From Patescibacteria group bacterium (GTDB taxonomy: Bacteria > Patescibacteriota > Minisyncoccia > 2-02-FULL-40-12 > IGHO2-01-FULL-4-A): a stretch of 64,000 nt of DNA. Position 1 is the stretch's first letter. Each line of letters starts with the position of its first letter. Of this stretch, positions 1,940 to 47,471 are shown piece by piece. The stretch spans positions 4,864-68,863 of the forward strand of contig JBBTSB010000006.1 in assembly GCA_038064915.1 (NCBI GenBank). The letters are read 5' to 3'. Position numbers and translations under genes: made by a program. The notes beneath the pieces are model-generated. The model did not search any database and had not been told where the DNA came from. It saw nothing but the letters and a program-made list of their open reading frames with translations.

Positions 1940-4354
1940 GTGATGCAATATCAGAACGCTATTACATCACTACCTGAGCTTCTATTTCGTATGGAGGAAC
2001 AATACTTGGAAGACGTAGGAAACAGTCAAGCCCGAGACGACGGTGGACAACCATTTCCATTGCGCAAGATACTTCGCTGGATTGTATATACGGCAGCCTT
2101 TTTGGTACCGTTGTTGTTTTTGCCATTTACCTCGGATGTGCTCGACTTCAACAAAGAAGTGCTCATCTATATTCTTGCCGGAGCTGGACTCGTTTTGTTT
2201 CTGGTGGATATGATCAAGGAGGGGACGCTGCGGTACCGTCCGAGTACGTTCACCTGGCCGCTGATCGGATTGCTCGTTGCAGGCATTATTTCCGTGGCCT
2301 TTTCAGTCAATCGGTATACGAGCATCTTTGGAGTAGGAAATAGTCACTCGTTCTCACTCATGAGTTTGCTTTCCCTGGCAGTTTTGTTTTTTCTGGCCTT
2401 GCAAGTCATGGAAGATCGCGGCCGCACTCTACGCAATGTTTTTGTCGGCTCACTATCACTCGCTCTTCTCATTGGCGCTTTTCAAATGCTCGGAATTCAT
2501 ATCTTTTCCGGCGAAGCGTTTAGCAAGTCGAGCTTCAACACGATCGGGTCACTCAATGCCCTTGGATTTCTCGCTGCACTTCTCCTTCCCGTGTTTCTGA
2601 TTTCTCCGGGACGGAGTATGGATTGGCGCACGATACTCCTTCAAATCCTTCGCGGTATTGGATTTGCGTCGGCATTGTTTATCTTGATTGTTTTGAATTG
2701 GACGTATATTTGGATTGTGGCGTTTATCGGTGTTCTCGCCTACATTGCGTTCTCTTCTTCCAGCGAGGTCATTCATCGAAAAATGGCGTTTTTCGCATTT
2801 CCCATGGCCATTATCATTCTTGGCATTCTGCTGATAGTGATCAAATTCAACTGGACTTCCATAAAGGCTGATTTTCCTGTTGAAGTTTCACCCACCCATC
2901 GAATTTCCTACAGCATCGCCGGGGATGCTTTGAAAGCCAGGCCTCTCGGGTACGGACTTGAAAACTTCTCAATAGGATACGATAAACTTCGTCCTGCCGC
3001 ATCGGTCAATAATCTGTTGTTTCAGGCTCGATTCACTGACGCAACATCCGAATTTGCGACCATGGCGGTTGAGGGTGGAATTCCTATGATCGTGGCTTTC
3101 TTGGTGTTTTTGCTTTTTCTGGTAAGGGTGTTGTGGAAAAACATAAAAAATAAATTTGGCGGTGATGCTGACCATGGAAAATTGTGGGCATCGGCATTTG
3201 CTGCGGCTGTGGTTTTCTTCCTGTATCCAATTCCGTTGACCATCCTGTTTGTCTTTTTGTTCCTCATCGCACTTGGAGAACTGTCTTCGAGTAACGATGC
3301 ATCGTCTGAAAAGGTATTCAACCTTGAAGATCGCAGTGTGTATTCGCTGTTGGGCTCGGTAGGATTCATCGTCGGATTGGTTGCCGTTCTTGCGGGTGGG
3401 TATTTCATGGTAAATAAGTATATCGCAAATGTGCAGGTGGCTCATGCCTCGCGGGCCAGCAATGCCAATGATGCTATTGCCAGCCTGGTGGAAAGTATCA
3501 ACAGTTACCCGCATGATGCACGAAGCTACCGTATTCTTTCCCAAGTGCTGATTACACAGATCGCCGATGATCTCAAAAAGGGTCCTGTTGGTGTTTCTCA
3601 AGCTGAATTCAATTCTCAACTCCAAAATCATATTGCTTCCGTCATCAACGTGGCGGTGCGTGGGACGGAAGTGGATCCGTCGGATTCTGAAAATTGGATG
3701 AATCGAGGCTTTATCTATCAGAATCTTATTACTCTCGTCAATGGTTCTGATGAAGCGGCAATTAATATGTACAATGAAACACTTGCTCGGAGCCCGGCAA
3801 ATGCTCTTGCGCGCGTGCGCATTGGCAATATTCACTTGACGCTCGCTGACACGGCTCGCAAAAACAACAATCGAGAGGCGATCGAGACTCATTTGAAAGC
3901 GGCTGAAGATGAATACAAGGCGGCAATCGGACTCTACAACAACTACGGACAGGCGCTCTACAATCTGGCCGCTGTTTACGATCGAAAAGGGGAATTACCC
4001 CAGGCCATCAAGCAGTTTGAGCGCCTTCAAGCGACGAGCCCTCGGGATCCCAGTATTCTGTTTCAGCTTGGTCTTTTGTACTACCGCAACAATCAAAAAG
4101 ATGCCGCGCTTCGCGCGTGGGAACAGGCTGTGCTTTCGTTCCCGAATTATTCCAACGCTCGCTGGTACCTATCACTCATTTACGAAGAGCGAGGAGACTT
4201 GAAGAGAGCGTTGGCCGAAGTTGAGGCGATTGAAAAGCTAAATCCCGACAATGAGCTGGTCATTGAACGTTTGGAAGTTCTCAATGCCGGCCTCAGGCAG
4301 ATTATTCCTCCGGAGGATGTCTTAGATCAGACTCCGCTGAACAATGAGCAGTAA
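1940..4354 (+). CDS. O-antigen ligase/polymerase-like polytopic membrane protein with C-terminal TPR repeats
   Basis: 804 aa. At least ten hydrophobic helices in the N-terminal two-thirds. The C-terminus carries TPR-like repeats (YNNYGQALYNLAAVYDRKGE..., NYSNARWYLSLIYEERGD). Confidence 0.55.
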   Translation: MMQYQNAITSLPELLFRMEEQYLEDVGNSQARDDGGQPFPLRKILRWIVYTAAFLVPLLFLPFTSDVLDFNKEVLIYILAGAGLVLFLVDMIKEGTLRYRPSTFTWPLIGLLVAGIISVAFSVNRYTSIFGVGNSHSFSLMSLLSLAVLFFLALQVMEDRGRTLRNVFVGSLSLALLIGAFQMLGIHIFSGEAFSKSSFNTIGSLNALGFLAALLLPVFLISPGRSMDWRTILLQILRGIGFASALFILIVLNWTYIWIVAFIGVLAYIAFSSSSEVIHRKMAFFAFPMAIIILGILLIVIKFNWTSIKADFPVEVSPTHRISYSIAGDALKARPLGYGLENFSIGYDKLRPAASVNNLLFQARFTDATSEFATMAVEGGIPMIVAFLVFLLFLVRVLWKNIKNKFGGDADHGKLWASAFAAAVVFFLYPIPLTILFVFLFLIALGELSSSNDASSEKVFNLEDRSVYSLLGSVGFIVGLVAVLAGGYFMVNKYIANVQVAHASRASNANDAIASLVESINSYPHDARSYRILSQVLITQIADDLKKGPVGVSQAEFNSQLQNHIASVINVAVRGTEVDPSDSENWMNRGFIYQNLITLVNGSDEAAINMYNETLARSPANALARVRIGNIHLTLADTARKNNNREAIETHLKAAEDEYKAAIGLYNNYGQALYNLAAVYDRKGELPQAIKQFERLQATSPRDPSILFQLGLLYYRNNQKDAALRAWEQAVLSFPNYSNARWYLSLIYEERGDLKRALAEVEAIEKLNPDNELVIERLEVLNAGLRQIIPPEDVLDQTPLNNEQ

Positions 4355-5084
4355 GTATTGGAACGTCGTACCGATTGCCGTGCTAGTACTGATGGGAGCT
4401 TATTACATCCGCTATCACCCGAGTTTTGTCTTCATTCCCAACGATGTTCAGGTTGTCATCCCGGAAGGGACCAATATCGCTGACATTGATCGTCTCATTT
4501 CCGAAGCAGGAGTGTGGCCGCAAGGCACACTCCTGAAATCGGAGTATCTCTCTCTTGAAGGTACGCTGTTCCCCGATACGTACAGGTTTGATCGTGGAAG
4601 CACCGCGGAGGATGTTATTACTCGTATGCAAGCGGTGAAACCGCTGAATTCCGGACTTAGCGGTTTCACCGCTAAGTCACTGATCATCGCTTCCATGCTG
4701 GAGAAAGAAGTGCAAATCGAATCTGACATGCGTATTGTCACTGGTATCATAGAAAAACGCCTGGCGGCCGGTATGCCTTTGCAACTAGATGCTACCGTTG
4801 CCTACGGTGCCTGTCTACCGAGGTTTAACCTTGGTGAATACTGCGACGTGAGCCAAGTCAATCTTGTTGATAACATCAAGCGTGATTCAGCATATAATAC
4901 GTATACGAGGCGGGGACTGCCTGTCGGGCCGATTTCCAACCCCGGGCTGAAAGCCCTGCGTGCCGCAGAAAACCCGCACGTGAGCGATTACTGGTATTAC
5001 TTGAGTAAGCCGGACGGAACCACGGTGTTTTCAAGAACCCTAGAGGAACATAACACAGCAAAATGGCGTTTCTTCCCACGATAG
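4344..5084 (+). CDS. mltG: Endolytic murein transglycosylase MltG (YceG family)
   Basis: N-terminal TM anchor. YceG-like motifs: ASMLEKE, YNTYTRRGLPVGPISNPG. Confidence 0.75.
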   Translation: MSSKYWNVVPIAVLVLMGAYYIRYHPSFVFIPNDVQVVIPEGTNIADIDRLISEAGVWPQGTLLKSEYLSLEGTLFPDTYRFDRGSTAEDVITRMQAVKPLNSGLSGFTAKSLIIASMLEKEVQIESDMRIVTGIIEKRLAAGMPLQLDATVAYGACLPRFNLGEYCDVSQVNLVDNIKRDSAYNTYTRRGLPVGPISNPGLKALRAAENPHVSDYWYYLSKPDGTTVFSRTLEEHNTAKWRFFPR

Positions 5085-6014: not shown

Positions 6015-6378
6015 AGATGAATTTATCAAGCAAGTAGAAACTATGTCAGTTGCAGAACTGAATGAATTAGTGAAGGCGTTGGAAGAGAAGTTTGGCGTTT
6101 CCGCCGCTGCGATGTCAGCCGCACCCGCCTCCGCTGAAGCTTCGGCGGGCGAAGCCGCAGAAGCGAAAGATAGCTTCAATGTGTTGCTGAAGACCGCCGG
6201 TGACCAAAAGATCGCTGTCATCAAAGTTGTTCGTGAAGCAACTGGTAAGGGTTTGAAAGAATCCAAAGATCTTGTTGATGGCGCACCGAAGATGGTGAAG
6301 GAAGGCCTCAAGAAAGCAGAAGCGGATGAATTGAAAGCAAAGTTGGAAGCTGCGGGGGCTACAGTGGAATTGCAGTAA
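6007..6378 (+). CDS. rplL: 50S ribosomal protein L7/L12
   Basis: 123 aa. Ala-rich hinge, then the conserved C-terminal domain [55 protein letters not shown]. Confidence 0.9.
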
Positions 6379-6396
6379 GAGGAGTTACTAATATGC

Positions 6397-6430
6397 AAAA
6401 ACAACCCACGATTGGGTTGTTTTTGTTTTC
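6397..6430 (+). terminator. Rho-independent terminator after rplL
   Basis: Stem AAAAACAACCCA / TGGGTTGTTTTT with loop CGAT, followed by a T-rich tract. Confidence 0.7.
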
Positions 6431-6442
6431 CACAACTACACC

Positions 6443-6478
6443 GTTCTGACTATTACACGATCGTGGTACAATCAGAAC
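6443..6478. repeat. 36-bp nested-palindrome repeat, copy 1 (GTTCTGACTATTACACGATCGTGGTACAATCAGAAC), overlapping a -10 box
   Basis: Outer inverted repeat GTTCTGA...TCAGAAC. Central perfect palindrome ACGATCGT. TACAAT at 6467..6472 lies 6 nt before the ATG at 6479. A second copy is at 7003..7038. Confidence 0.55.
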
Positions 6479-7000
6479 ATGGGTGGATATCCAAGTTATG
6501 GGATTCTCAACGAACTGGCAGAGATGCTCTCGTATAAGCCCCTAAAAACTATTTTACGGGATTTGCTTTTCGATAAGGTTTCACAGCGCGATGGCATCAA
6601 TAAAACAACGTTCGCGCGCAAAATGTATGATCTACAAAAGGGAAACTTTGTCACTATTAAGGGAGATCAAGTCACGGTTACGAAGAAAGGGTGGCAGCGT
6701 ATTGATTTAGAACGGATTGATAAGCTTCAATGGGATGATAAAAAACAAGATGGGTTCTTCCGTTTGATCATTTTCGATATACCAGAAAAACGCCGCAGAG
6801 CGAGAGATATATTACGTGAAAAGCTTCGAGAATTTGAGTGCCATCAAATCCAGAAAAGCGTTTTTGTGACACCCTACCGCTGTGAAGAGGTGATGAATGA
6901 GCTGGTCAAATTGTTACACGTTGAACGACATGTTCATATCATAAAAGCGGTCCACCTTGGACACGACGATGCGAAAGTTCGAAAACATTTTCGTAAGTAA
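6479..7000 (+). CDS. PaaX-like protein: N-terminal winged-helix DNA-binding domain plus C-terminal Cas2/VapD-like domain
   Basis: 173 aa. The C-terminus FFRLIIFDIPEKRRRARDILREKLREFECHQIQKSVFV matches the Cas2 beta1-alpha1 signature (hydrophobic strand, D, KRRRx, Q.SVF). The N-terminus looks like a wHTH. Confidence 0.45.
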   Translation: MGGYPSYGILNELAEMLSYKPLKTILRDLLFDKVSQRDGINKTTFARKMYDLQKGNFVTIKGDQVTVTKKGWQRIDLERIDKLQWDDKKQDGFFRLIIFDIPEKRRRARDILREKLREFECHQIQKSVFVTPYRCEEVMNELVKLLHVERHVHIIKAVHLGHDDAKVRKHFRK

Positions 7001-7002
7001 TT

Positions 7003-7038
7003 ATTCTGACTATTAAACGATCGTTGTGTGGTCAGAAC
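7003..7038. repeat. 36-bp nested-palindrome repeat, copy 2 (ATTCTGACTATTAAACGATCGTTGTGTGGTCAGAAC)
   Basis: About 27 of 36 positions match copy 1. Same outer inverted repeat and the same central ACGATCGT. Lies between two convergent genes. Confidence 0.55.
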
Positions 7039-8804
7039 GAGAGTTGCCAGACTTTATAGTCTTTGGAGAGCAACCAAATACTACCGTCAGCAGAGACGGT
7101 AATGTCTTTGAGTTCGCCGATGTTATCGAGCTTGTAGGTGGTCTGGAGGGAGCCGTTGGTTTTGTCCAGGGCGTAGAGGCGTTTCGTGACGGGATTGGCA
7201 AGATAGATCAGTGTCGCATCTTTTGAGGTCACGATTTGGTTCTGTTCATTGACCGGAAGGCTGGGGTCAAATTCTGACTCTTTTTTTCCTTTGAAATATG
7301 TTTCCACTTTTCCACCGTTGGTCAATACGAAAAGGTTGCCGTCAACGGCGATAGACTGTGCCACGCCTTCAGGAGTTCCCCAATCGGAACGCTTTGTGCC
7401 ACCAGCCAACGCATCCGCATATTTATACAAGTTGTTACCCGCGAGTGTATACAAATTTCCTTCGTACAAGGTGGCATCCGTTGCAGTGACGGGATCTTGC
7501 AATGTGTACGTTTTGTCTTTGACCGTTAATACTTCGGATCTATTGTACACCACCGAAGGTGTGTTGTTTTCGAATGCCAGTACTATACCTGTAGCTTCTG
7601 CAGTGCCTACTTCTTTTGGCACGAGAGAACTGACGTGGTCAACGCTATCCATAGATTTTTCAAGTTCTTTTCTTAGTTCCGAGATTTTCTCGCTTTCGAA
7701 GGGCTGAATTTGAGCCAGTGTTTGTTGGATGAGCGAGCGAGCTTCCTGGGTGTCATTTTGAGCCAGCTTCGCATGGATAGACTTGAGATTTTCAGCTCCG
7801 TTAGCATAGGCCGCCTTGAGACCCTTCGCATCACCACCTGATCGTATCAGGACAATGCTAAGCAGGGGGATAAAAACCACGAGGGCAATGATGATAAATC
7901 CCTTGAATCGTGAGTGAATCGGCAGACGATCCATACTTTTAAGTTTACCAGCAACATTGGAAAGTGAGCTGATAACATTACCTTTTTTAGAGACAGAAAG
8001 CTCAGCAGCGATAACACGCGGCTTCTCAGAAACTTGAGCTGTGCGACCGCCTGATACGGAATCAGCGGTCGGACCGCCGGGTTGTGATGCCAGCGTTGCT
8101 GTCGCAGGTACATCCAAGGGAATTTCTTTGATTTGCTCAATCGCAATATGAACGCCGCAACAAGTAAAGGTATCAAGATGTTCCGCCAATTGGGAGATTT
8201 TTTCCAAAAACTGTTCCTGGGGTTCTTTCACGAGCATCGTTTGCAGCATTTTTTCACGAGAGGTGATGGGGCGAGCGGGGTAGTAAGCAAATAGTTTATC
8301 ACCCGGCTGGAGTTTTCCCGAGATAATGTTAGAAAACTGTTGTTCGTCTTCGGCAGATTTCTGGAAGAGGGCAATGTTATTGAGAACGTCTATGTGTTCC
8401 CCATTTCTGGCAAGACCGACCTTGAATTTTCCCAATTTTGAAATATAGAGTTGATCTCCGGCGATTGCAGCAAGACCCAGGTTGAGAGCAAAAGATTTGT
8501 TTTTAAAAAAATCCTGAAGGATTTCATTGAGTTTTTTCAGGGTGCCTTCAAACGATTTTTTGGGATCTTGGCTTTTGAGTGCCTGCTCGGAATAGTATTC
8601 GCGCTTTGCTAGCGATGAAACCAGACTGATCACATACCCAAGATCTTCCTCGTCGTATTTTACGTGCCCAATGAGGTATAGTGAGCCAAGAGTTTTTTCC
8701 TGCGTGGTGGTCCCGGAATACGAAAGAACATCAACATGGGTATTGACTTCATCGGTCTTATAGAGTAATTCTTTAACGACGGGTTTGAGAGTGATTTTTT
8801 CCAT
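7032..8804 (-). CDS. Hypothetical single-pass membrane protein: N-terminal cytoplasmic domain (possibly PP2C/SpoIIE-like) and C-terminal extracellular beta-propeller-like repeats
   Basis: 590 aa. Central TM segment FIIIALVVFIPLLSIVLI. The C-terminus has repeated DGNLFVLTNGGKV / YALDKTNG-type beta-strand motifs. Confidence 0.35.
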   Translation of the reverse strand: MEKITLKPVVKELLYKTDEVNTHVDVLSYSGTTTQEKTLGSLYLIGHVKYDEEDLGYVISLVSSLAKREYYSEQALKSQDPKKSFEGTLKKLNEILQDFFKNKSFALNLGLAAIAGDQLYISKLGKFKVGLARNGEHIDVLNNIALFQKSAEDEQQFSNIISGKLQPGDKLFAYYPARPITSREKMLQTMLVKEPQEQFLEKISQLAEHLDTFTCCGVHIAIEQIKEIPLDVPATATLASQPGGPTADSVSGGRTAQVSEKPRVIAAELSVSKKGNVISSLSNVAGKLKSMDRLPIHSRFKGFIIIALVVFIPLLSIVLIRSGGDAKGLKAAYANGAENLKSIHAKLAQNDTQEARSLIQQTLAQIQPFESEKISELRKELEKSMDSVDHVSSLVPKEVGTAEATGIVLAFENNTPSVVYNRSEVLTVKDKTYTLQDPVTATDATLYEGNLYTLAGNNLYKYADALAGGTKRSDWGTPEGVAQSIAVDGNLFVLTNGGKVETYFKGKKESEFDPSLPVNEQNQIVTSKDATLIYLANPVTKRLYALDKTNGSLQTTYKLDNIGELKDITVSADGSIWLLSKDYKVWQLSF

Positions 8805-8837: not shown

Positions 8838-9413
8838 ATGTCAAAACAGAGTCTAGAAGTGCTTTTTGAATCAAGAACACGGCTAAAAATCCTCAAATTT
8901 TTATTTCGAAATTTTCCCAAGTCGTACTCTTCTCGAGAAATTGTCGCGCACACGCAGGAAGATACGTCCGCAGTTCGGAAAGAATTGAAGCGTTTGATGG
9001 AAATAGGTCTGATCGAAAACAAAAAGACCGTCTATGGAATCAGCCCCGAATTCGAATATTTTACCGAGCTTCGTGATCTCATCATCAAATCTTCGCCTTC
9101 TGAAAAACGGGACCTCATTGAACGAATTCATAAACTTGGTAAAATCAGAGTGGCGATCATTTCGGGAATTTTCTTGGATAAAGAACTGAACGATCCGCTC
9201 GCTGTGGATTTATTTCTTGTGCATGACTATCTGGACAAGCGCAAGCTGACGCTATTTCTCAAGGCGATAGAGTCCGAGATTGGTACTGAAGTGCGATTTG
9301 CGGCGATGGATAAAGAAGAGTTCAAATATCGGCTCGCGATGTTTGACCGATTTGTCCGGGTCCTGCTAGAAGGTCCTCACGAAAAGCTGATAAATAAATT
9401 AGGGATTGAATAA
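8838..9413 (+). CDS. Hypothetical wHTH-type regulator-like protein
   Basis: 191 aa. N-terminal ArsR/MarR-like wHTH (RLKILKFLFRNFPKSYSSREIVAHTQEDTSAVRKELKRLMEIGLIE). Confidence 0.35.
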   Translation: MSKQSLEVLFESRTRLKILKFLFRNFPKSYSSREIVAHTQEDTSAVRKELKRLMEIGLIENKKTVYGISPEFEYFTELRDLIIKSSPSEKRDLIERIHKLGKIRVAIISGIFLDKELNDPLAVDLFLVHDYLDKRKLTLFLKAIESEIGTEVRFAAMDKEEFKYRLAMFDRFVRVLLEGPHEKLINKLGIE

Positions 9414-10216: not shown

Positions 10217-11773
10217 ATGACTAACCAAGTGAAAATCAGCAGCAATTGCAAACAACAATTTGAGATCACCTCTGATGATCTAATTTTTTATGAAAAAATG
10301 GCTGTGGCGGAGCCCGGATATTGTCCGCAATGCCGGATGCAAAGACGGCTTTTGCATCGCAATGAGCGTACGCTCTATCGGCGACCGTGCGACAAGTGTG
10401 GCAAAGATTCAGTGTCCATTTATCCGCCGGGTAAGTTTGTTGTCTACTGTAATCCTTGTTGGTGGGGGGATTCGTGGGATGGCAAAGACTCTGGGATTGA
10501 CTACGATCCCAATCGGCCGTTTTTTGAGCAATATATAGAATTGCAGTCAAAAGTCCCGCGTATCAATCTTTTGAGTATTACGAGCGTTAACTCGGAATAC
10601 ACGAACAACGCTGAAGACAACAAAAACTGCTATCTTATTTTTGCCGCGCAAAAAAACGAAGACTGTATGTACGGTCGGCTGGTCCAGCGTTGTAAGTCGG
10701 TGGTTGATACCGCATGGATTTATGACAGTGAGCTATGTTATGAATGTTTGGATGTTAGGAATTGCTACGGTTGTATGTACTGTGAGCGGTGTCAAACGAG
10801 CAAAGATTTATTGTTTTGCTTTGATGTGCGTGGCTCGCAAAACTGTATTCTCTCTACGAATTTGAGAAATAAAAACTACTATATAGAGAATAAGCAGTGT
10901 ACAAAAGAAGAATATGAAAAGAAAAAGAAAGAAATTTTGGCGGATATCGAATCTGCGAAAAAAAGATTCGAAGAGCTCAAGAGCCAGGCAATCGTGAAGT
11001 ATGCATTTCAAACCAAATGCGTAAACACGACAGGGGACTATCTCTACAACGTCCACAGCTCCCGCATGATGTTTGATACGGAAAACGCCAAAGATTGTGC
11101 CTATATGGCCGATGCCGAATCATCCGAAGATTGCATGGATGGCAACAACATGTATTATAAGCCCGAGAAGTGTCTCGACATGATGGGGGTTTTGCAAACA
11201 TCCAATTCTGCTTTCTGCACGTATGTATTTTATTGCCACGATGTTTTTTATTCCAATAGCCTCCAGAGCTGCGAAAATTGTTTTGGTTGTATTGGTTTGA
11301 AAAAAGCTAGCTATTGTATTTTAAATAAGCAATATACAAAAGAGGAATATGAGAAACTGCGAGAAACAATAATTTCAAACATGTCTGAATATGGAGACTT
11401 TTTGCCGCCTGAAACTTCACCGTTTAAATACAACGAAACACTTGCAAAGGATTATTTTCCAGATCCGGCAGCCGAAGAAATAAAGACTGGAACCTATGGC
11501 AAAGAGAATGGCAAGGATGTATTTGCGTGCGTGGACTGCAAAAAGAATTTTAAAATCACACCCAACGAGTTTGCTTTTTATGAACGCATGGGGCTACCAT
11601 TGCCGCTCAAAGACTTTGAATGCCGTATGCAGGATCGTCTTCGTAAACGCACACCCCGCAAACTCTGGCATCGCAACTGCATGAAGTGTGACAAAGATAT
11701 CGAAACGACCTACGCACCCGATCGTAAAGAAACGGTATATTGTGAGGCCTGCTACCAGGCGGAAGTCTCGTAA
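10217..11773 (+). CDS. Cysteine-rich protein built from internal duplications (terminal zinc-ribbon-like modules flanking two Cys-rich repeats)
   Basis: 518 aa. N-terminal module FYEKM..CPQCRMQRRL..CDKCGKD..VYCNPCWW mirrors the C-terminal module FYERM..ECRMQDRL..CMKCDKD..VYCEACYQ. Two central ~125-aa repeats each end in ..NC.GC...YCI.NKQ.TKEEYEK. Confidence 0.5.
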   Translation: MTNQVKISSNCKQQFEITSDDLIFYEKMAVAEPGYCPQCRMQRRLLHRNERTLYRRPCDKCGKDSVSIYPPGKFVVYCNPCWWGDSWDGKDSGIDYDPNRPFFEQYIELQSKVPRINLLSITSVNSEYTNNAEDNKNCYLIFAAQKNEDCMYGRLVQRCKSVVDTAWIYDSELCYECLDVRNCYGCMYCERCQTSKDLLFCFDVRGSQNCILSTNLRNKNYYIENKQCTKEEYEKKKKEILADIESAKKRFEELKSQAIVKYAFQTKCVNTTGDYLYNVHSSRMMFDTENAKDCAYMADAESSEDCMDGNNMYYKPEKCLDMMGVLQTSNSAFCTYVFYCHDVFYSNSLQSCENCFGCIGLKKASYCILNKQYTKEEYEKLRETIISNMSEYGDFLPPETSPFKYNETLAKDYFPDPAAEEIKTGTYGKENGKDVFACVDCKKNFKITPNEFAFYERMGLPLPLKDFECRMQDRLRKRTPRKLWHRNCMKCDKDIETTYAPDRKETVYCEACYQAEVS

Positions 11774-46417: not shown

Positions 46418-47161
46418 ATGTCAAAAAAAACCAGATGGATTCTCTTCTGTATCGCAGTCATCCTGTTTCTCGGATTGAGCTACTCGATGGTTGTGTTTTC
46501 GCTTGGGTACAAATATGACTTTGTAAACCGAACATTTGTTTCCACCGGATCCTTTCGTGTCATAGCTAACACCGATGCTGATGTGTACATAAATGACAAG
46601 CTGTCGGGAAAGACCTCATTTTTAGGAAATAGTTTTTCAAAAGGGAAGTTATTGCCGCGGAGCTATTCGGTGCGGCTTGAGCGTGATGGATATTTTACAT
46701 GGCAAAAAAATATCCCGGTTGTGGCGAGCTTGTTTACTGATATTCCGAAAATTGTGCTTTTTCCCACGGAGCAGATTTTTGAGCAGGTTTCCACGAGCTC
46801 GTTTGGGTTTCCGCTTGCTGATTCCAATGTCCGATCGACTAAAGGGAAATTACTTACATTCGACGATCATGAGATAACAATCGAATGGCTAGATAATACG
46901 GATTATCAGCCATTTAAGGAAGCTGGAGATGTCGAAATTCTCCTTCGACTTCCCAGCGTGATCGATGATGTGCAATGGTACAAGGACCACGATCATATCT
47001 TCGTTGCCGCAGGTGGAATCTTGTATTTTTATGAAATCGACAAGCGCGGCGGCCTTAACTCGTACCAACTCAGCACTCTGAAAAGCCCTTTTTACTATGA
47101 CGCGGACGAAAACGCCATCTACTTGATGGAAAACGGCGAAATCGTGAAGATGAAGTTGTAA
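46418..47161 (+). CDS. Hypothetical membrane-anchored protein with a PEGA-like domain
   Basis: TM ILFCIAVILFLGLSYSMVVF. NTDADVYINDKLSGKT...RSYSVRLERDGY resembles PEGA. Confidence 0.4.
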   Translation: MSKKTRWILFCIAVILFLGLSYSMVVFSLGYKYDFVNRTFVSTGSFRVIANTDADVYINDKLSGKTSFLGNSFSKGKLLPRSYSVRLERDGYFTWQKNIPVVASLFTDIPKIVLFPTEQIFEQVSTSSFGFPLADSNVRSTKGKLLTFDDHEITIEWLDNTDYQPFKEAGDVEILLRLPSVIDDVQWYKDHDHIFVAAGGILYFYEIDKRGGLNSYQLSTLKSPFYYDADENAIYLMENGEIVKMKL

Positions 47162-47231
47162 AAAATGTGAAGGCTCCGACGGGTCGGACGGGCGGGTGAC
47201 CGCACCGGAGACCTCACATCAGAGCCGTGGT

Positions 47232-47471
47232 TCAGGAACACGTGTGAGGGTCGCGAGAACCCCTTGGTGCATTGCGCGGGTTGGTCACCGCGCAATTGTG
47301 CTCGCCGCAGTGATTGCAGTACCGGCCCGTGTGACCCGCTACCGTGCAGATCCCGTCCGACCCCTTGCATCGTTCGCAAGTATCGGGGTTCTTCGGTGAG
47401 GCAGTATTGTGACCGCAGTCGGGTTCACAGCACCCGACGATGCAGCCACAAGAAGCGGTGGCAATGGTCAT
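47232..47471 (-). CDS. Small cysteine-rich (15 Cys in 79 aa) GC-rich protein: metallothionein-like or RiPP-precursor-like
   Basis: MTIATASCGCIVGCCEPDCGH...CERCKG..C....CNHCGEHNC. Canonical RBS AAGGAGG 8 nt upstream. A GC hairpin plus T-run terminator lies downstream. Confidence 0.4.
   Translation of the reverse strand: MTIATASCGCIVGCCEPDCGHNTASPKNPDTCERCKGSDGICTVAGHTGRYCNHCGEHNCAVTNPRNAPRGSRDPHTCS

Follow-up and report, generated by a model that had tools for sequence, protein, structure and literature searches.

A short PaaX-like gene with a Cas2 fold between two palindromes in Patescibacteria: a candidate self-regulating module

INTRODUCTION

What does a gene named after a CRISPR protein do on its own between two palindromes, directly behind ribosomal protein genes? 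The locus that raises this question lies in a 64,000-nucleotide stretch of a Patescibacteria metagenome-assembled genome (MAG), which is called the window below and is numbered from its first letter. A 173-amino-acid (aa) protein, whose NCBI product name is 'CRISPR-associated endonuclease Cas2', is encoded there on the forward strand (6479-7000), and its gene is bracketed by two copies of an imperfect palindrome, P1 (6443-6478) and P2 (7003-7038). An earlier reading of the bare sequence, hereafter the original prediction, had seen in this arrangement either a self-regulating Cas2-domain regulator or a small cassette bounded by direct repeats.

We argue here that the gene probably encodes a short autorepressor of the PaaX type, which would be translated from a leaderless mRNA and would bind both palindromes, the second of them serving as an auxiliary operator. 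The comparison relies on 80 diverse loci of the family that were fetched from metagenomes and analysed by script, the counts covering 79 to 83 loci according to the test; individual loci are cited by number (L002, L005 and so on). The palindrome-gene-palindrome layout looks like an undescribed self-regulating gene module, and full-text literature searches found no description of the biology of this family or of its two-palindrome bracket.

A WINGED-HELIX PROTEIN WITH A CAS2 FOLD

The open reading frame (ORF) and its translation are as quoted in the original prediction, which had recognized a winged helix-turn-helix (wHTH) domain followed by a Cas2-like, PaaX-like domain. Profile searches and structure comparison bear this assignment out. 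The winged helix occupies approximately residues 1-85 (6479-6733) and the Cas2 fold residues 88-165 (6740-6973). Over the latter, Pfam PaaX_M (PF20803, 'PaaX central Cas2-like domain') matches with E=7.1e-18 and 64.9 bits for a cutoff of 24 bits, Pfam CRISPR_Cas2 (PF09827) exceeds its own cutoff (E=3.8e-6, 27.4 bits versus 23.8) and PADLOC also returns a Cas2 match (E=4e-7). The NCBIfam Cas2 model TIGR01573 stays below its cutoff (22.6 versus 24.5) and the PaaX equivalog TIGR02277 very far below (12.2 bits versus 264.55). Among the profiles that had been proposed as a check, PaaX_M and Cas2 are thus matched significantly and PaaX_C is absent: Pfam gave no match to this C-terminal helical effector-binding domain, and the protein ends at residue 173. 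The N-terminal domain has no Pfam match at E<=10, and a profile search of PDB sequences yielded weak matches to MarR/SlyA profiles.

All matches of that PDB-sequence search being weak, the link of the protein to PaaX needed a fold search. The AlphaFold model (pLDDT, the predicted local distance difference test score, 85.6) displays three helices and a wing in the N-terminal domain (H-H-H-beta-beta) and a beta-alpha-beta-beta-alpha-beta order in the C-terminal domain. Its best Foldseek matches in the PDB are E. coli PaaX (8a39) and Rv0674 (3kfw), the alignment to 8a39 extending over 178 columns, and many wHTH regulators are matched lower down. The model, its fold matches and the weak profile matches together support the N-terminal winged-helix DNA-binding domain that characterizes the PaaX family. 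The C-terminal part is matched by the Cas2 chain of a Cas1-Cas2 complex (5xvo_E, 3.1 A over 75 columns), and a profile of the family aligns FDIPE...R...L...Q.SVF with Sulfolobus Cas2 (3exc), which scores above any PaaX structure. In the window protein the Cas2-like stretch FFRLIIFDIPEKRRR...QKSVFV covers residues 93-130, close to the boundaries of about 95-135 originally proposed. Three residues, D100, R109 and S127, are invariant in 60 diverse members and all lie in the Cas2-fold half, as do most of the near-invariant residues, the N-terminal half being variable. The protein thus has a Cas2 fold with a conserved catalytic-site aspartate, PF09827 scoring above its cutoff and D100 being invariant. 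It has in common with Cas2 and VapD the ferredoxin-like fold, the Asp ending beta-1, the basic helix and the Q.SVF motif.

The family is large and its names are misleading. A profile search at E<=1e-10 returned 3101 clusters at 50% identity, the best 150 listed being mostly 170-200 aa long. From a second search came at least 4933 at 90% identity, whose names are Cas2, PaaX or hypothetical. All matches bearing an organism name belong to Patescibacteria (Paceibacterota, Giovannonibacteria, Brennerbacteria, Wildermuthbacteria). The family is catalogued in Pfam as PaaX_M and misnamed in genome records: the cluster names 'CRISPR-associated endonuclease Cas2' and 'PaaX' are wrong, since these proteins are neither adaptation proteins nor phenylacetate regulators. 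We classify the window protein as a probable PaaX-type autorepressor devoid of the effector domain, which keeps the signature residues of Cas2 and is associated with a conserved bracket of two palindromes and a conserved palindrome core.

TWO PALINDROMES AND AN EMBEDDED PROMOTER

P1 reads GTTCTGA-N7-ACGATCGT-N7-TCAGAAC and P2 reads ATTCTGA-N7-ACGATCGT-N7-TCAGAAC. A repeat finder reports them as 35-nt direct copies sharing 83% identity; each is an imperfect palindrome around the perfect centre ACGATCGT, precisely where the original prediction had located them. A 24-nt pattern allowing at most three mismatches finds P1 and P2 as its only sites in 64 kb, for 0 expected, and within the same 64 kb ACGATCGT is found in these two copies only.

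P1 is the proposed primary operator and would cover the promoter from -35 to +1. Its right half contains an extended -10 element, TGgTACAAT (6464-6472, forward strand), in which the hexamer TACAAT (6467-6472), preceded by TGg, ends 6 nt ahead of the ATG at 6479. No Shine-Dalgarno sequence is found upstream of this ATG, and a leaderless mRNA is implied. P2 starts 2 nt past the TAA stop codon of the gene. Its right arm holds the TGA stop, and the two codons before it, of a gene on the opposite strand (7032-8804), which is called X here and encodes a 590-aa protein conserved in Patescibacteria, with no function assigned. The hexamer inside copy 1 and the position of copy 2 between convergent genes had both been pointed out beforehand, and the sequence agrees on both counts. 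P1 folds as a hairpin of -10.9 kcal/mol (z=-3.3) and P2 as one of -14.0 kcal/mol (z=-4.7), and neither is called by a terminator scan of the window.

THE BRACKET ACROSS THE FAMILY

Two orthologs at 64-73% identity, L002 and L005, preserve the same synteny and carry both palindromes at the same places. Their P1 copies abut the ATG (3965-4000 in L002, 3545-3580 in L005), their P2 copies are found at 4525-4560 and 4104-4139, respectively, and TGGTATAAT (TGgTAtAAT) stands 6 nt before the ATG in both of them, the distance seen in the window; TGgTAtAAT is kept there in all three orthologs. A far more distant homolog in another genomic context, L008 (36% identical), has CCACATCTTT-ACGATCGT-AGAAATGTGG followed by TATAAT upstream of the gene, and CGACATCTCT-ACGATCGT-AATTTTGTCG downstream of its stop codon.

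The same organization holds family-wide. Among the 79 loci with enough flank, 55 have a segment common to both sides of the gene that scores far higher than in shuffled controls, and this segment is palindromic. An unbiased scan, with the 99th percentile of the background as its threshold, found palindromes upstream in 53 of 81 loci, downstream in 52 of 81 and on both flanks in 41. At the centre of 82 of the 106 flank palindromes lies a core of the form N-C-[GT]-[AG]-[TC]-[CA]-G-N, for a background of 0.3% per 8-mer; the commonest version is ACGATCGT, then come ACGGCCGT, GCTATCGC, GCGATCGC and GCTATAGC. Sites anchored on this core number 101 in approximately 33 kb of gene flanks versus 8 in 324 kb elsewhere, a density some 120 times higher. 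The original prediction had named as fatal to itself a lack of profile similarity to Cas2/PaaX_C together with a motif that was a widespread generic terminator unlinked to the gene. The palindrome is no such thing: it lacks a T-tract and is tightly linked to this gene family. A generic terminator or repeat family is rejected on these grounds, on the two copies in 64 kb and on the enrichment in gene flanks.

Unlike the core, the arms are specific to each locus: their mean identity reaches 77% between the copies of one locus and 32% between loci. Some arm motifs are nevertheless common to subfamilies, such as CATAAT-N4-5-ACGGCCGT in L045, L063, L085 and L095, and the TCTGAC arms of L025 recall those of the window. 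Symmetry is uneven along the site, the core and positions 9-16 being complementary at 83-96% and positions 5-8 at only 63-71%. This dip agrees better with a protein that touches consecutive major grooves, at a spacing of about one helical turn, than with an uninterrupted hairpin stem.

In many loci a -10 box is overlapped or adjoined by the upstream copy, in a register that differs from one locus to another. The box ends precisely 6 nt ahead of the start codon in 13 of 83 loci, compared to about 1.8 for each other offset (Poisson P ~5e-8), and leaderless expression from an operator-embedded promoter is, as far as can be read from these flanks, typical of the family. The downstream copy lies approximately 5-90 bp from the stop codon, however far away the next gene is. 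It occurs in 26 of 35 loci where that gene is co-directional and in 14 of 25 where it is convergent. Such independence from the orientation of the next gene indicates that the downstream copy belongs to the PaaX-like gene. Its being an operator of the next gene is rejected as a general explanation, since loci with a convergent neighbour, the window among them, have it too.

No other gene accompanies the family. In an all-against-all clustering of the flanking ORFs of 83 loci, clusters contain at most 4 loci each, and a conserved partner gene, a toxin-antitoxin pair or a cas operon is rejected on this basis. The original prediction had reported that neither a CRISPR array nor cas1 was present. 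The window indeed contains no array; as to cas1, no conserved neighbour gene exists in the 83 loci, the gene itself not having been searched directly.

A PROPOSED MECHANISM OF AUTOREGULATION

The following scheme accounts for these observations. The gene would be transcribed as a leaderless message from the extended -10 promoter in the right half of P1. The N-terminal winged helices of the protein would read the variable outer arms of the palindrome and the Cas2-fold domain would form a dimer, probably placed on the dyad over the conserved CG-rich core. This placement is suggested by a parallel in conservation: the Cas2-fold half is the conserved part of the protein, as the centre is of the palindrome, the N-terminal domain and the arms both being variable. 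Bound to P1, the protein would occlude RNA polymerase and produce negative autoregulation. P2, usually the more perfect copy, would be a second binding site of the same protein and is most likely an auxiliary operator: it may raise promoter occupancy by looping out the gene of about 560 bp, or it may form a roadblock at the 3' boundary. The idea of autoregulation through an operator overlapping the promoter, already put forward in the original prediction, is strengthened by the orthologs, by the -10 peak across the family, which reproduces the 6-nt gap of the window, and by the precedent of PaaX.

E. coli PaaX binds TGATTC-N27-GAATCA, a pair of 6-bp inverted repeats 27 bp apart, and represses its own Px promoter by steric hindrance of RNA polymerase (PMC9493321). 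Its middle domain is a dimerization motif (PMC9493321). In the window, the arms TTCTGA and TCAGAA are separated by 22 bp (TTCTGA-N22-TCAGAA), and the sequence architecture would fit long-spacer inverted repeats laid over the protein's own promoter, as for PaaX. PaaX, the GntR-type repressor of phenylacetate catabolism in E. coli and Pseudomonas (8a39, 3l09), is the best structural and Pfam match of the window protein and resembles it in having a winged helix followed by a Cas2-like middle domain; its operator, like the proposed one here, is made of short inverted repeats with a long spacer (N27 versus N22 here). The differences are substantial. The C-terminal helical domain binding the effector phenylacetyl-CoA is absent from the 173-aa protein (the 8a39 chain has 305 residues), the Cas2 motifs FDIPE...Q.SVF are kept, a conserved CG-rich core is added to the site, two sites flank the gene and all organism-named members are patescibacterial. 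There are no paa catabolic genes among the neighbours of the window gene, which are rplJ, rplL and gene X.

The use of auxiliary operators reached by DNA looping is well established for LacI (O1/O2) and for lambda CI, whose OR and OL sites bracket the cI-rex operon. The likeness to our locus, one of analogy and not of homology, resides in a weaker promoter site paired with a second site located hundreds of bp away, across the regulated gene. The folds are unrelated, the second site is placed here directly after the protein's own stop codon in most members, and looping is presumed for the patescibacterial gene.

FURTHER SITES AND POSSIBLE REGULONS

If the protein is a repressor, does it control anything but itself? 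A strict pattern scan of species-representative genomes identified seven loci, three being contigs of a single MAG (CAYHEP01, labelled Candidatus Saccharibacteria). This MAG carries an L002-type gene and contains two further sites besides the copies that flank it; the four other loci fall in unrelated phyla, which is about the chance expectation. One of the further sites (L013, 6331-6366) falls within the 3'-terminal part of a purL-like ORF, approximately 70 bp upstream of a purQ-like gene, with an extended -10-like box TGGTAAAAT. The other (L016, 2778-2813) comes just after the gene of a 297-aa membrane protein, with an extended -10-like box TGGTATGAT; it is absent from the orthologous place in the window, and a conserved regulon is rejected for this reason. 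At L023, a third local copy of the palindrome, centred on 4404, is found at the promoter of a convergent trpS-like gene, in the 52 bp immediately upstream of it. Together with the downstream copy, it thereby brackets trpS as well. Small, non-conserved regulons seem to exist, and the only universal targets would be the two flanks of the gene itself.

Several points weigh against the autorepressor interpretation. Beyond the gene's own flanks there are few or no conserved targets, none in the 64-kb window and two in MAG CAYHEP01, and the physiological purpose of a protein that mainly regulates itself is hard to see. Some family members possess perfect palindromes of 40-48 bp, more than a dimeric operator needs, and these could point to the recognition of cruciforms or hairpins. 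The two copies at L066 share the same core type and have different arms, as is apparent by eye also at L022, L054 and L069, which is awkward for a winged helix that reads the arms. The greater perfection of the downstream palindrome (16 loci versus 6 in which the upstream one is more perfect, with 14 ties, two-sided p=0.05) is marginal, although a less perfect upstream copy would be expected if it were compromised by promoter constraints. Looping between P1 and P2 is pure conjecture, and all functional statements on the 173-aa protein rest on sequence.

GAIN AND LOSS OF THE GENE WITH ITS PALINDROMES

The alternative to a self-regulating gene in the original prediction, a cassette bounded by direct repeats, is the main rival. 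It would be a selfish or mobile minimal unit in which palindrome, gene and palindrome are gained or lost as a block, the palindromes being its ends, and we consider it rather unlikely. In such a unit the Cas2-fold protein, with its conserved aspartate, would nick, bridge or recombine the core in addition to any repression. Evidence in favour of it came from tracing the orthologs of protein X. Seven relatives (L097-L102 and L104) keep the synteny of tetratricopeptide repeat (TPR) protein, YceG, pilin, L10 and L12 genes facing X and lack the gene together with both palindromes; in these non-carriers rplL and X overlap by 20 bp, lie 1 bp apart or are separated by a bidirectional terminator of 44-66 bp. 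Carriers and non-carriers interleave in a tree of X proteins, in which the window, a carrier, is sister to the non-carrier L100. The X proteins of L006 (carrier) and L102 (non-carrier) share 79% identity and identical C-termini. L005 and L102 also have identical X C-termini with 685 bp and 1 bp between the stop codons, respectively, so that they differ essentially by the intergenic block. In the window it is P2 itself that supplies the stop codon of X.

Other observations speak for a cassette as well. The family is very diverse, as its 3101 clusters attest, and has no conserved neighbour gene. In L002, P1 and P2 have the same left half even where the two other sites of that MAG differ, which suggests homogenization between copies. 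L045 contains (1446-1603) a second copy of its palindrome and the first 44 codons of the family gene (95% aa identity), 1.2 kb ahead of the intact gene and separated from it by two small ORFs of no relation; the fragment is either a partial duplication or the trace of an insertion into a former copy. Finally, L105 carries in the rplL-X gap, equivalent to 6379-7031 of the window, an unrelated 170-aa ORF (4288-4800) followed by a terminator very like the rplL terminator of the window. The gap behaves as a hot spot for accessory genes.

Against mobility stands the behaviour of the unit itself. There is one copy per locus, with no second family gene in the 64 kb, and orthologs at about 63-73% identity hold the same position. 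Searching the flanks of 83 loci by tblastn for gene remnants disclosed only the L045 fragment, and arrays or tandem cassettes are therefore rejected. None of the eight loci devoid of the gene (the seven syntenic non-carriers and L105) retains a strong solo palindrome or a target-like sequence, and this disposes of solo palindromes at empty sites. No target-site duplication is visible by eye next to the palindromes of the window, L002 or L005. The protein consists of a wHTH domain and a Cas2 fold only, with no transposase or recombinase domain, and no Cas2-fold protein is known to catalyse transposition. A phage origin is rejected too, a single match having been obtained in 2.9 million viral contigs.

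Repetitive extragenic palindromes with their associated tyrosine transposases (REP/RAYT) and the ends of the insertion sequences (IS) IS200/IS605 resemble our locus in that a single-copy gene is flanked by palindromic repeats, with few extra copies (two in one MAG). Here, however, there is no HUH/Y1 transposase, extra copies are rare as opposed to tens to hundreds, and one copy is the promoter. Neither the dispersed copies, the transposase nor the target duplication of a REP/RAYT-like or IS-type mobile element was encountered, 8 extra sites being counted per 324 kb.

Repeated loss, in genomes that are being streamlined, is another explanation for presence and absence. Together, the gene and its two palindromes form an indel block in a hot spot of accessory genes, compatible with such loss or else with a lateral gain in which the conserved flanks served for recombination. 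The cassette idea hence survives in part: its block-wise presence and absence was confirmed and no mobility machinery was found. In its fullest form, it would describe a self-contained element of Patescibacteria, whose Cas2-fold dimer recognizes and possibly nicks or bridges the core of two boundary palindromes and which comes and goes as one block at hot spots flanked by convergent housekeeping genes; this we judge unlikely. If true, it would provide a Cas2-fold protein paired with palindromic direct repeats of about 36 bp outside CRISPR, relevant to the union of Cas2 with repeats.

RNA HAIRPINS OR CRISPR REMNANTS?

Could the palindromes act in RNA instead of DNA? They would then be hairpins at the 5' and 3' ends of the mRNA, involved in its stability, translation control or termination, and the Cas2 fold, RRM (RNA recognition motif)-like and RNase-related, may bind them. 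Some Cas2 and VapD proteins are RNases, P1 and P2 both fold as hairpins, P2 gains from G-U pairs on the sense strand (-14.0 kcal/mol versus -8.8 for the other strand) and its position right after the stop codon is terminator-like. The -10 box inside P1, 6 nt from the ATG, would nevertheless leave P1 outside the transcript. Mismatches in the arms are balanced between G-T and A-C (22:22 upstream, 28:22 downstream), without excess on the sense strand, and symmetry dips beside the core, where a stem should be tightest. A T-tract was not found after the downstream copies, although canonical T-run terminators exist in these genomes: the 9 nt following them contain a mean of 3.1 T, equal to the upstream copies, and at least 6 T in 3 of 49 cases. 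Rfam returned no family match, the two best hits being at chance level (E=0.44 and 0.96) and far below gathering scores. A sense-RNA hairpin is rejected by the missing strand bias in the arm mismatches and the missing Rfam match, and an RNA-level element in general appears very improbable.

The reading implied by the NCBI product name, an orphaned remnant of CRISPR adaptation made of Cas2 and two leftover repeats, can point to the Cas2 matches of Pfam (27.4 bits) and PADLOC (E=4e-7) and to 36-bp, partly palindromic repeats in direct orientation, but it is effectively refuted by the lack of an array in 64 kb and of any conserved neighbour in 83 loci (cas1 itself not being directly searched), by the score of TIGR01573 below its cutoff (22.6 versus 24.5), by a stand-alone protein twice the size of Cas2 with an additional DNA-binding domain and operator-like sites, and by a 'spacer' that would be the gene itself in every family member, with one repeat as its promoter.

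IMPLICATIONS FOR PATESCIBACTERIA AND FOR CAS2

Patescibacteria are otherwise considered nearly devoid of CRISPR, and the misnaming of at least 4,900 clusters inflates their apparent CRISPR content. For the study of regulation in the Candidate Phyla Radiation (CPR), the locus would gather a regulator with its promoter, its operator and a leaderless start within 600 bp, making it one of the few circuits of uncultured organisms that can be read from sequence. Because the putative recognition site can be read beside each gene, the family offers a large natural data set on how the specificities of protein and DNA evolve together. An uncommon trait of the design is the second site conserved at the gene's 3' end, whether it serves looping, insulation or the boundary of an element. 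A Cas2 fold with intact signature residues, joined to a DNA-binding domain and associated with palindromic repeats, also bears on the origin of Cas2.

SURROUNDING FEATURES OF THE WINDOW

The PaaX-like gene is preceded by rplJ and rplL, the L7/L12 gene (rplL) ending at 6378. An intrinsic terminator of rplL follows at 6396-6425 on the forward strand; it consists of a perfect 13-bp stem and a T-run (-18.9 kcal/mol, z=-6.2) and marks the left limit of the unit. Its loop (6407-6414) reads CACGATTG, one mismatch away from the core ACGATCGT; the terminators of orthologs differ, and the resemblance is probably due to chance.

Next to gene X, a 191-aa wHTH protein (8838-9413, forward strand) is assigned by PADLOC to the candidate-defence family PDC-M05A (E=1.7e-21) and shows weak similarity to Csa3/CARF-associated wHTH models. 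The corresponding position is occupied in L006 by an adjoining NTP_transf_2/Polbeta gene and in L105 by a pair of HepT-like and NTP_transf_2 genes, which suggests that this region is a HEPN/MNT toxin-antitoxin neighbourhood. An unusually G+C-rich segment at 47160-47460 follows the gene of a 247-aa membrane protein, and the greater part of it is not covered by any ORF of at least 90 aa. On the forward strand, 10217-11773 encodes a 518-aa protein that is very rich in cysteine and contains many CxxC-like motifs.

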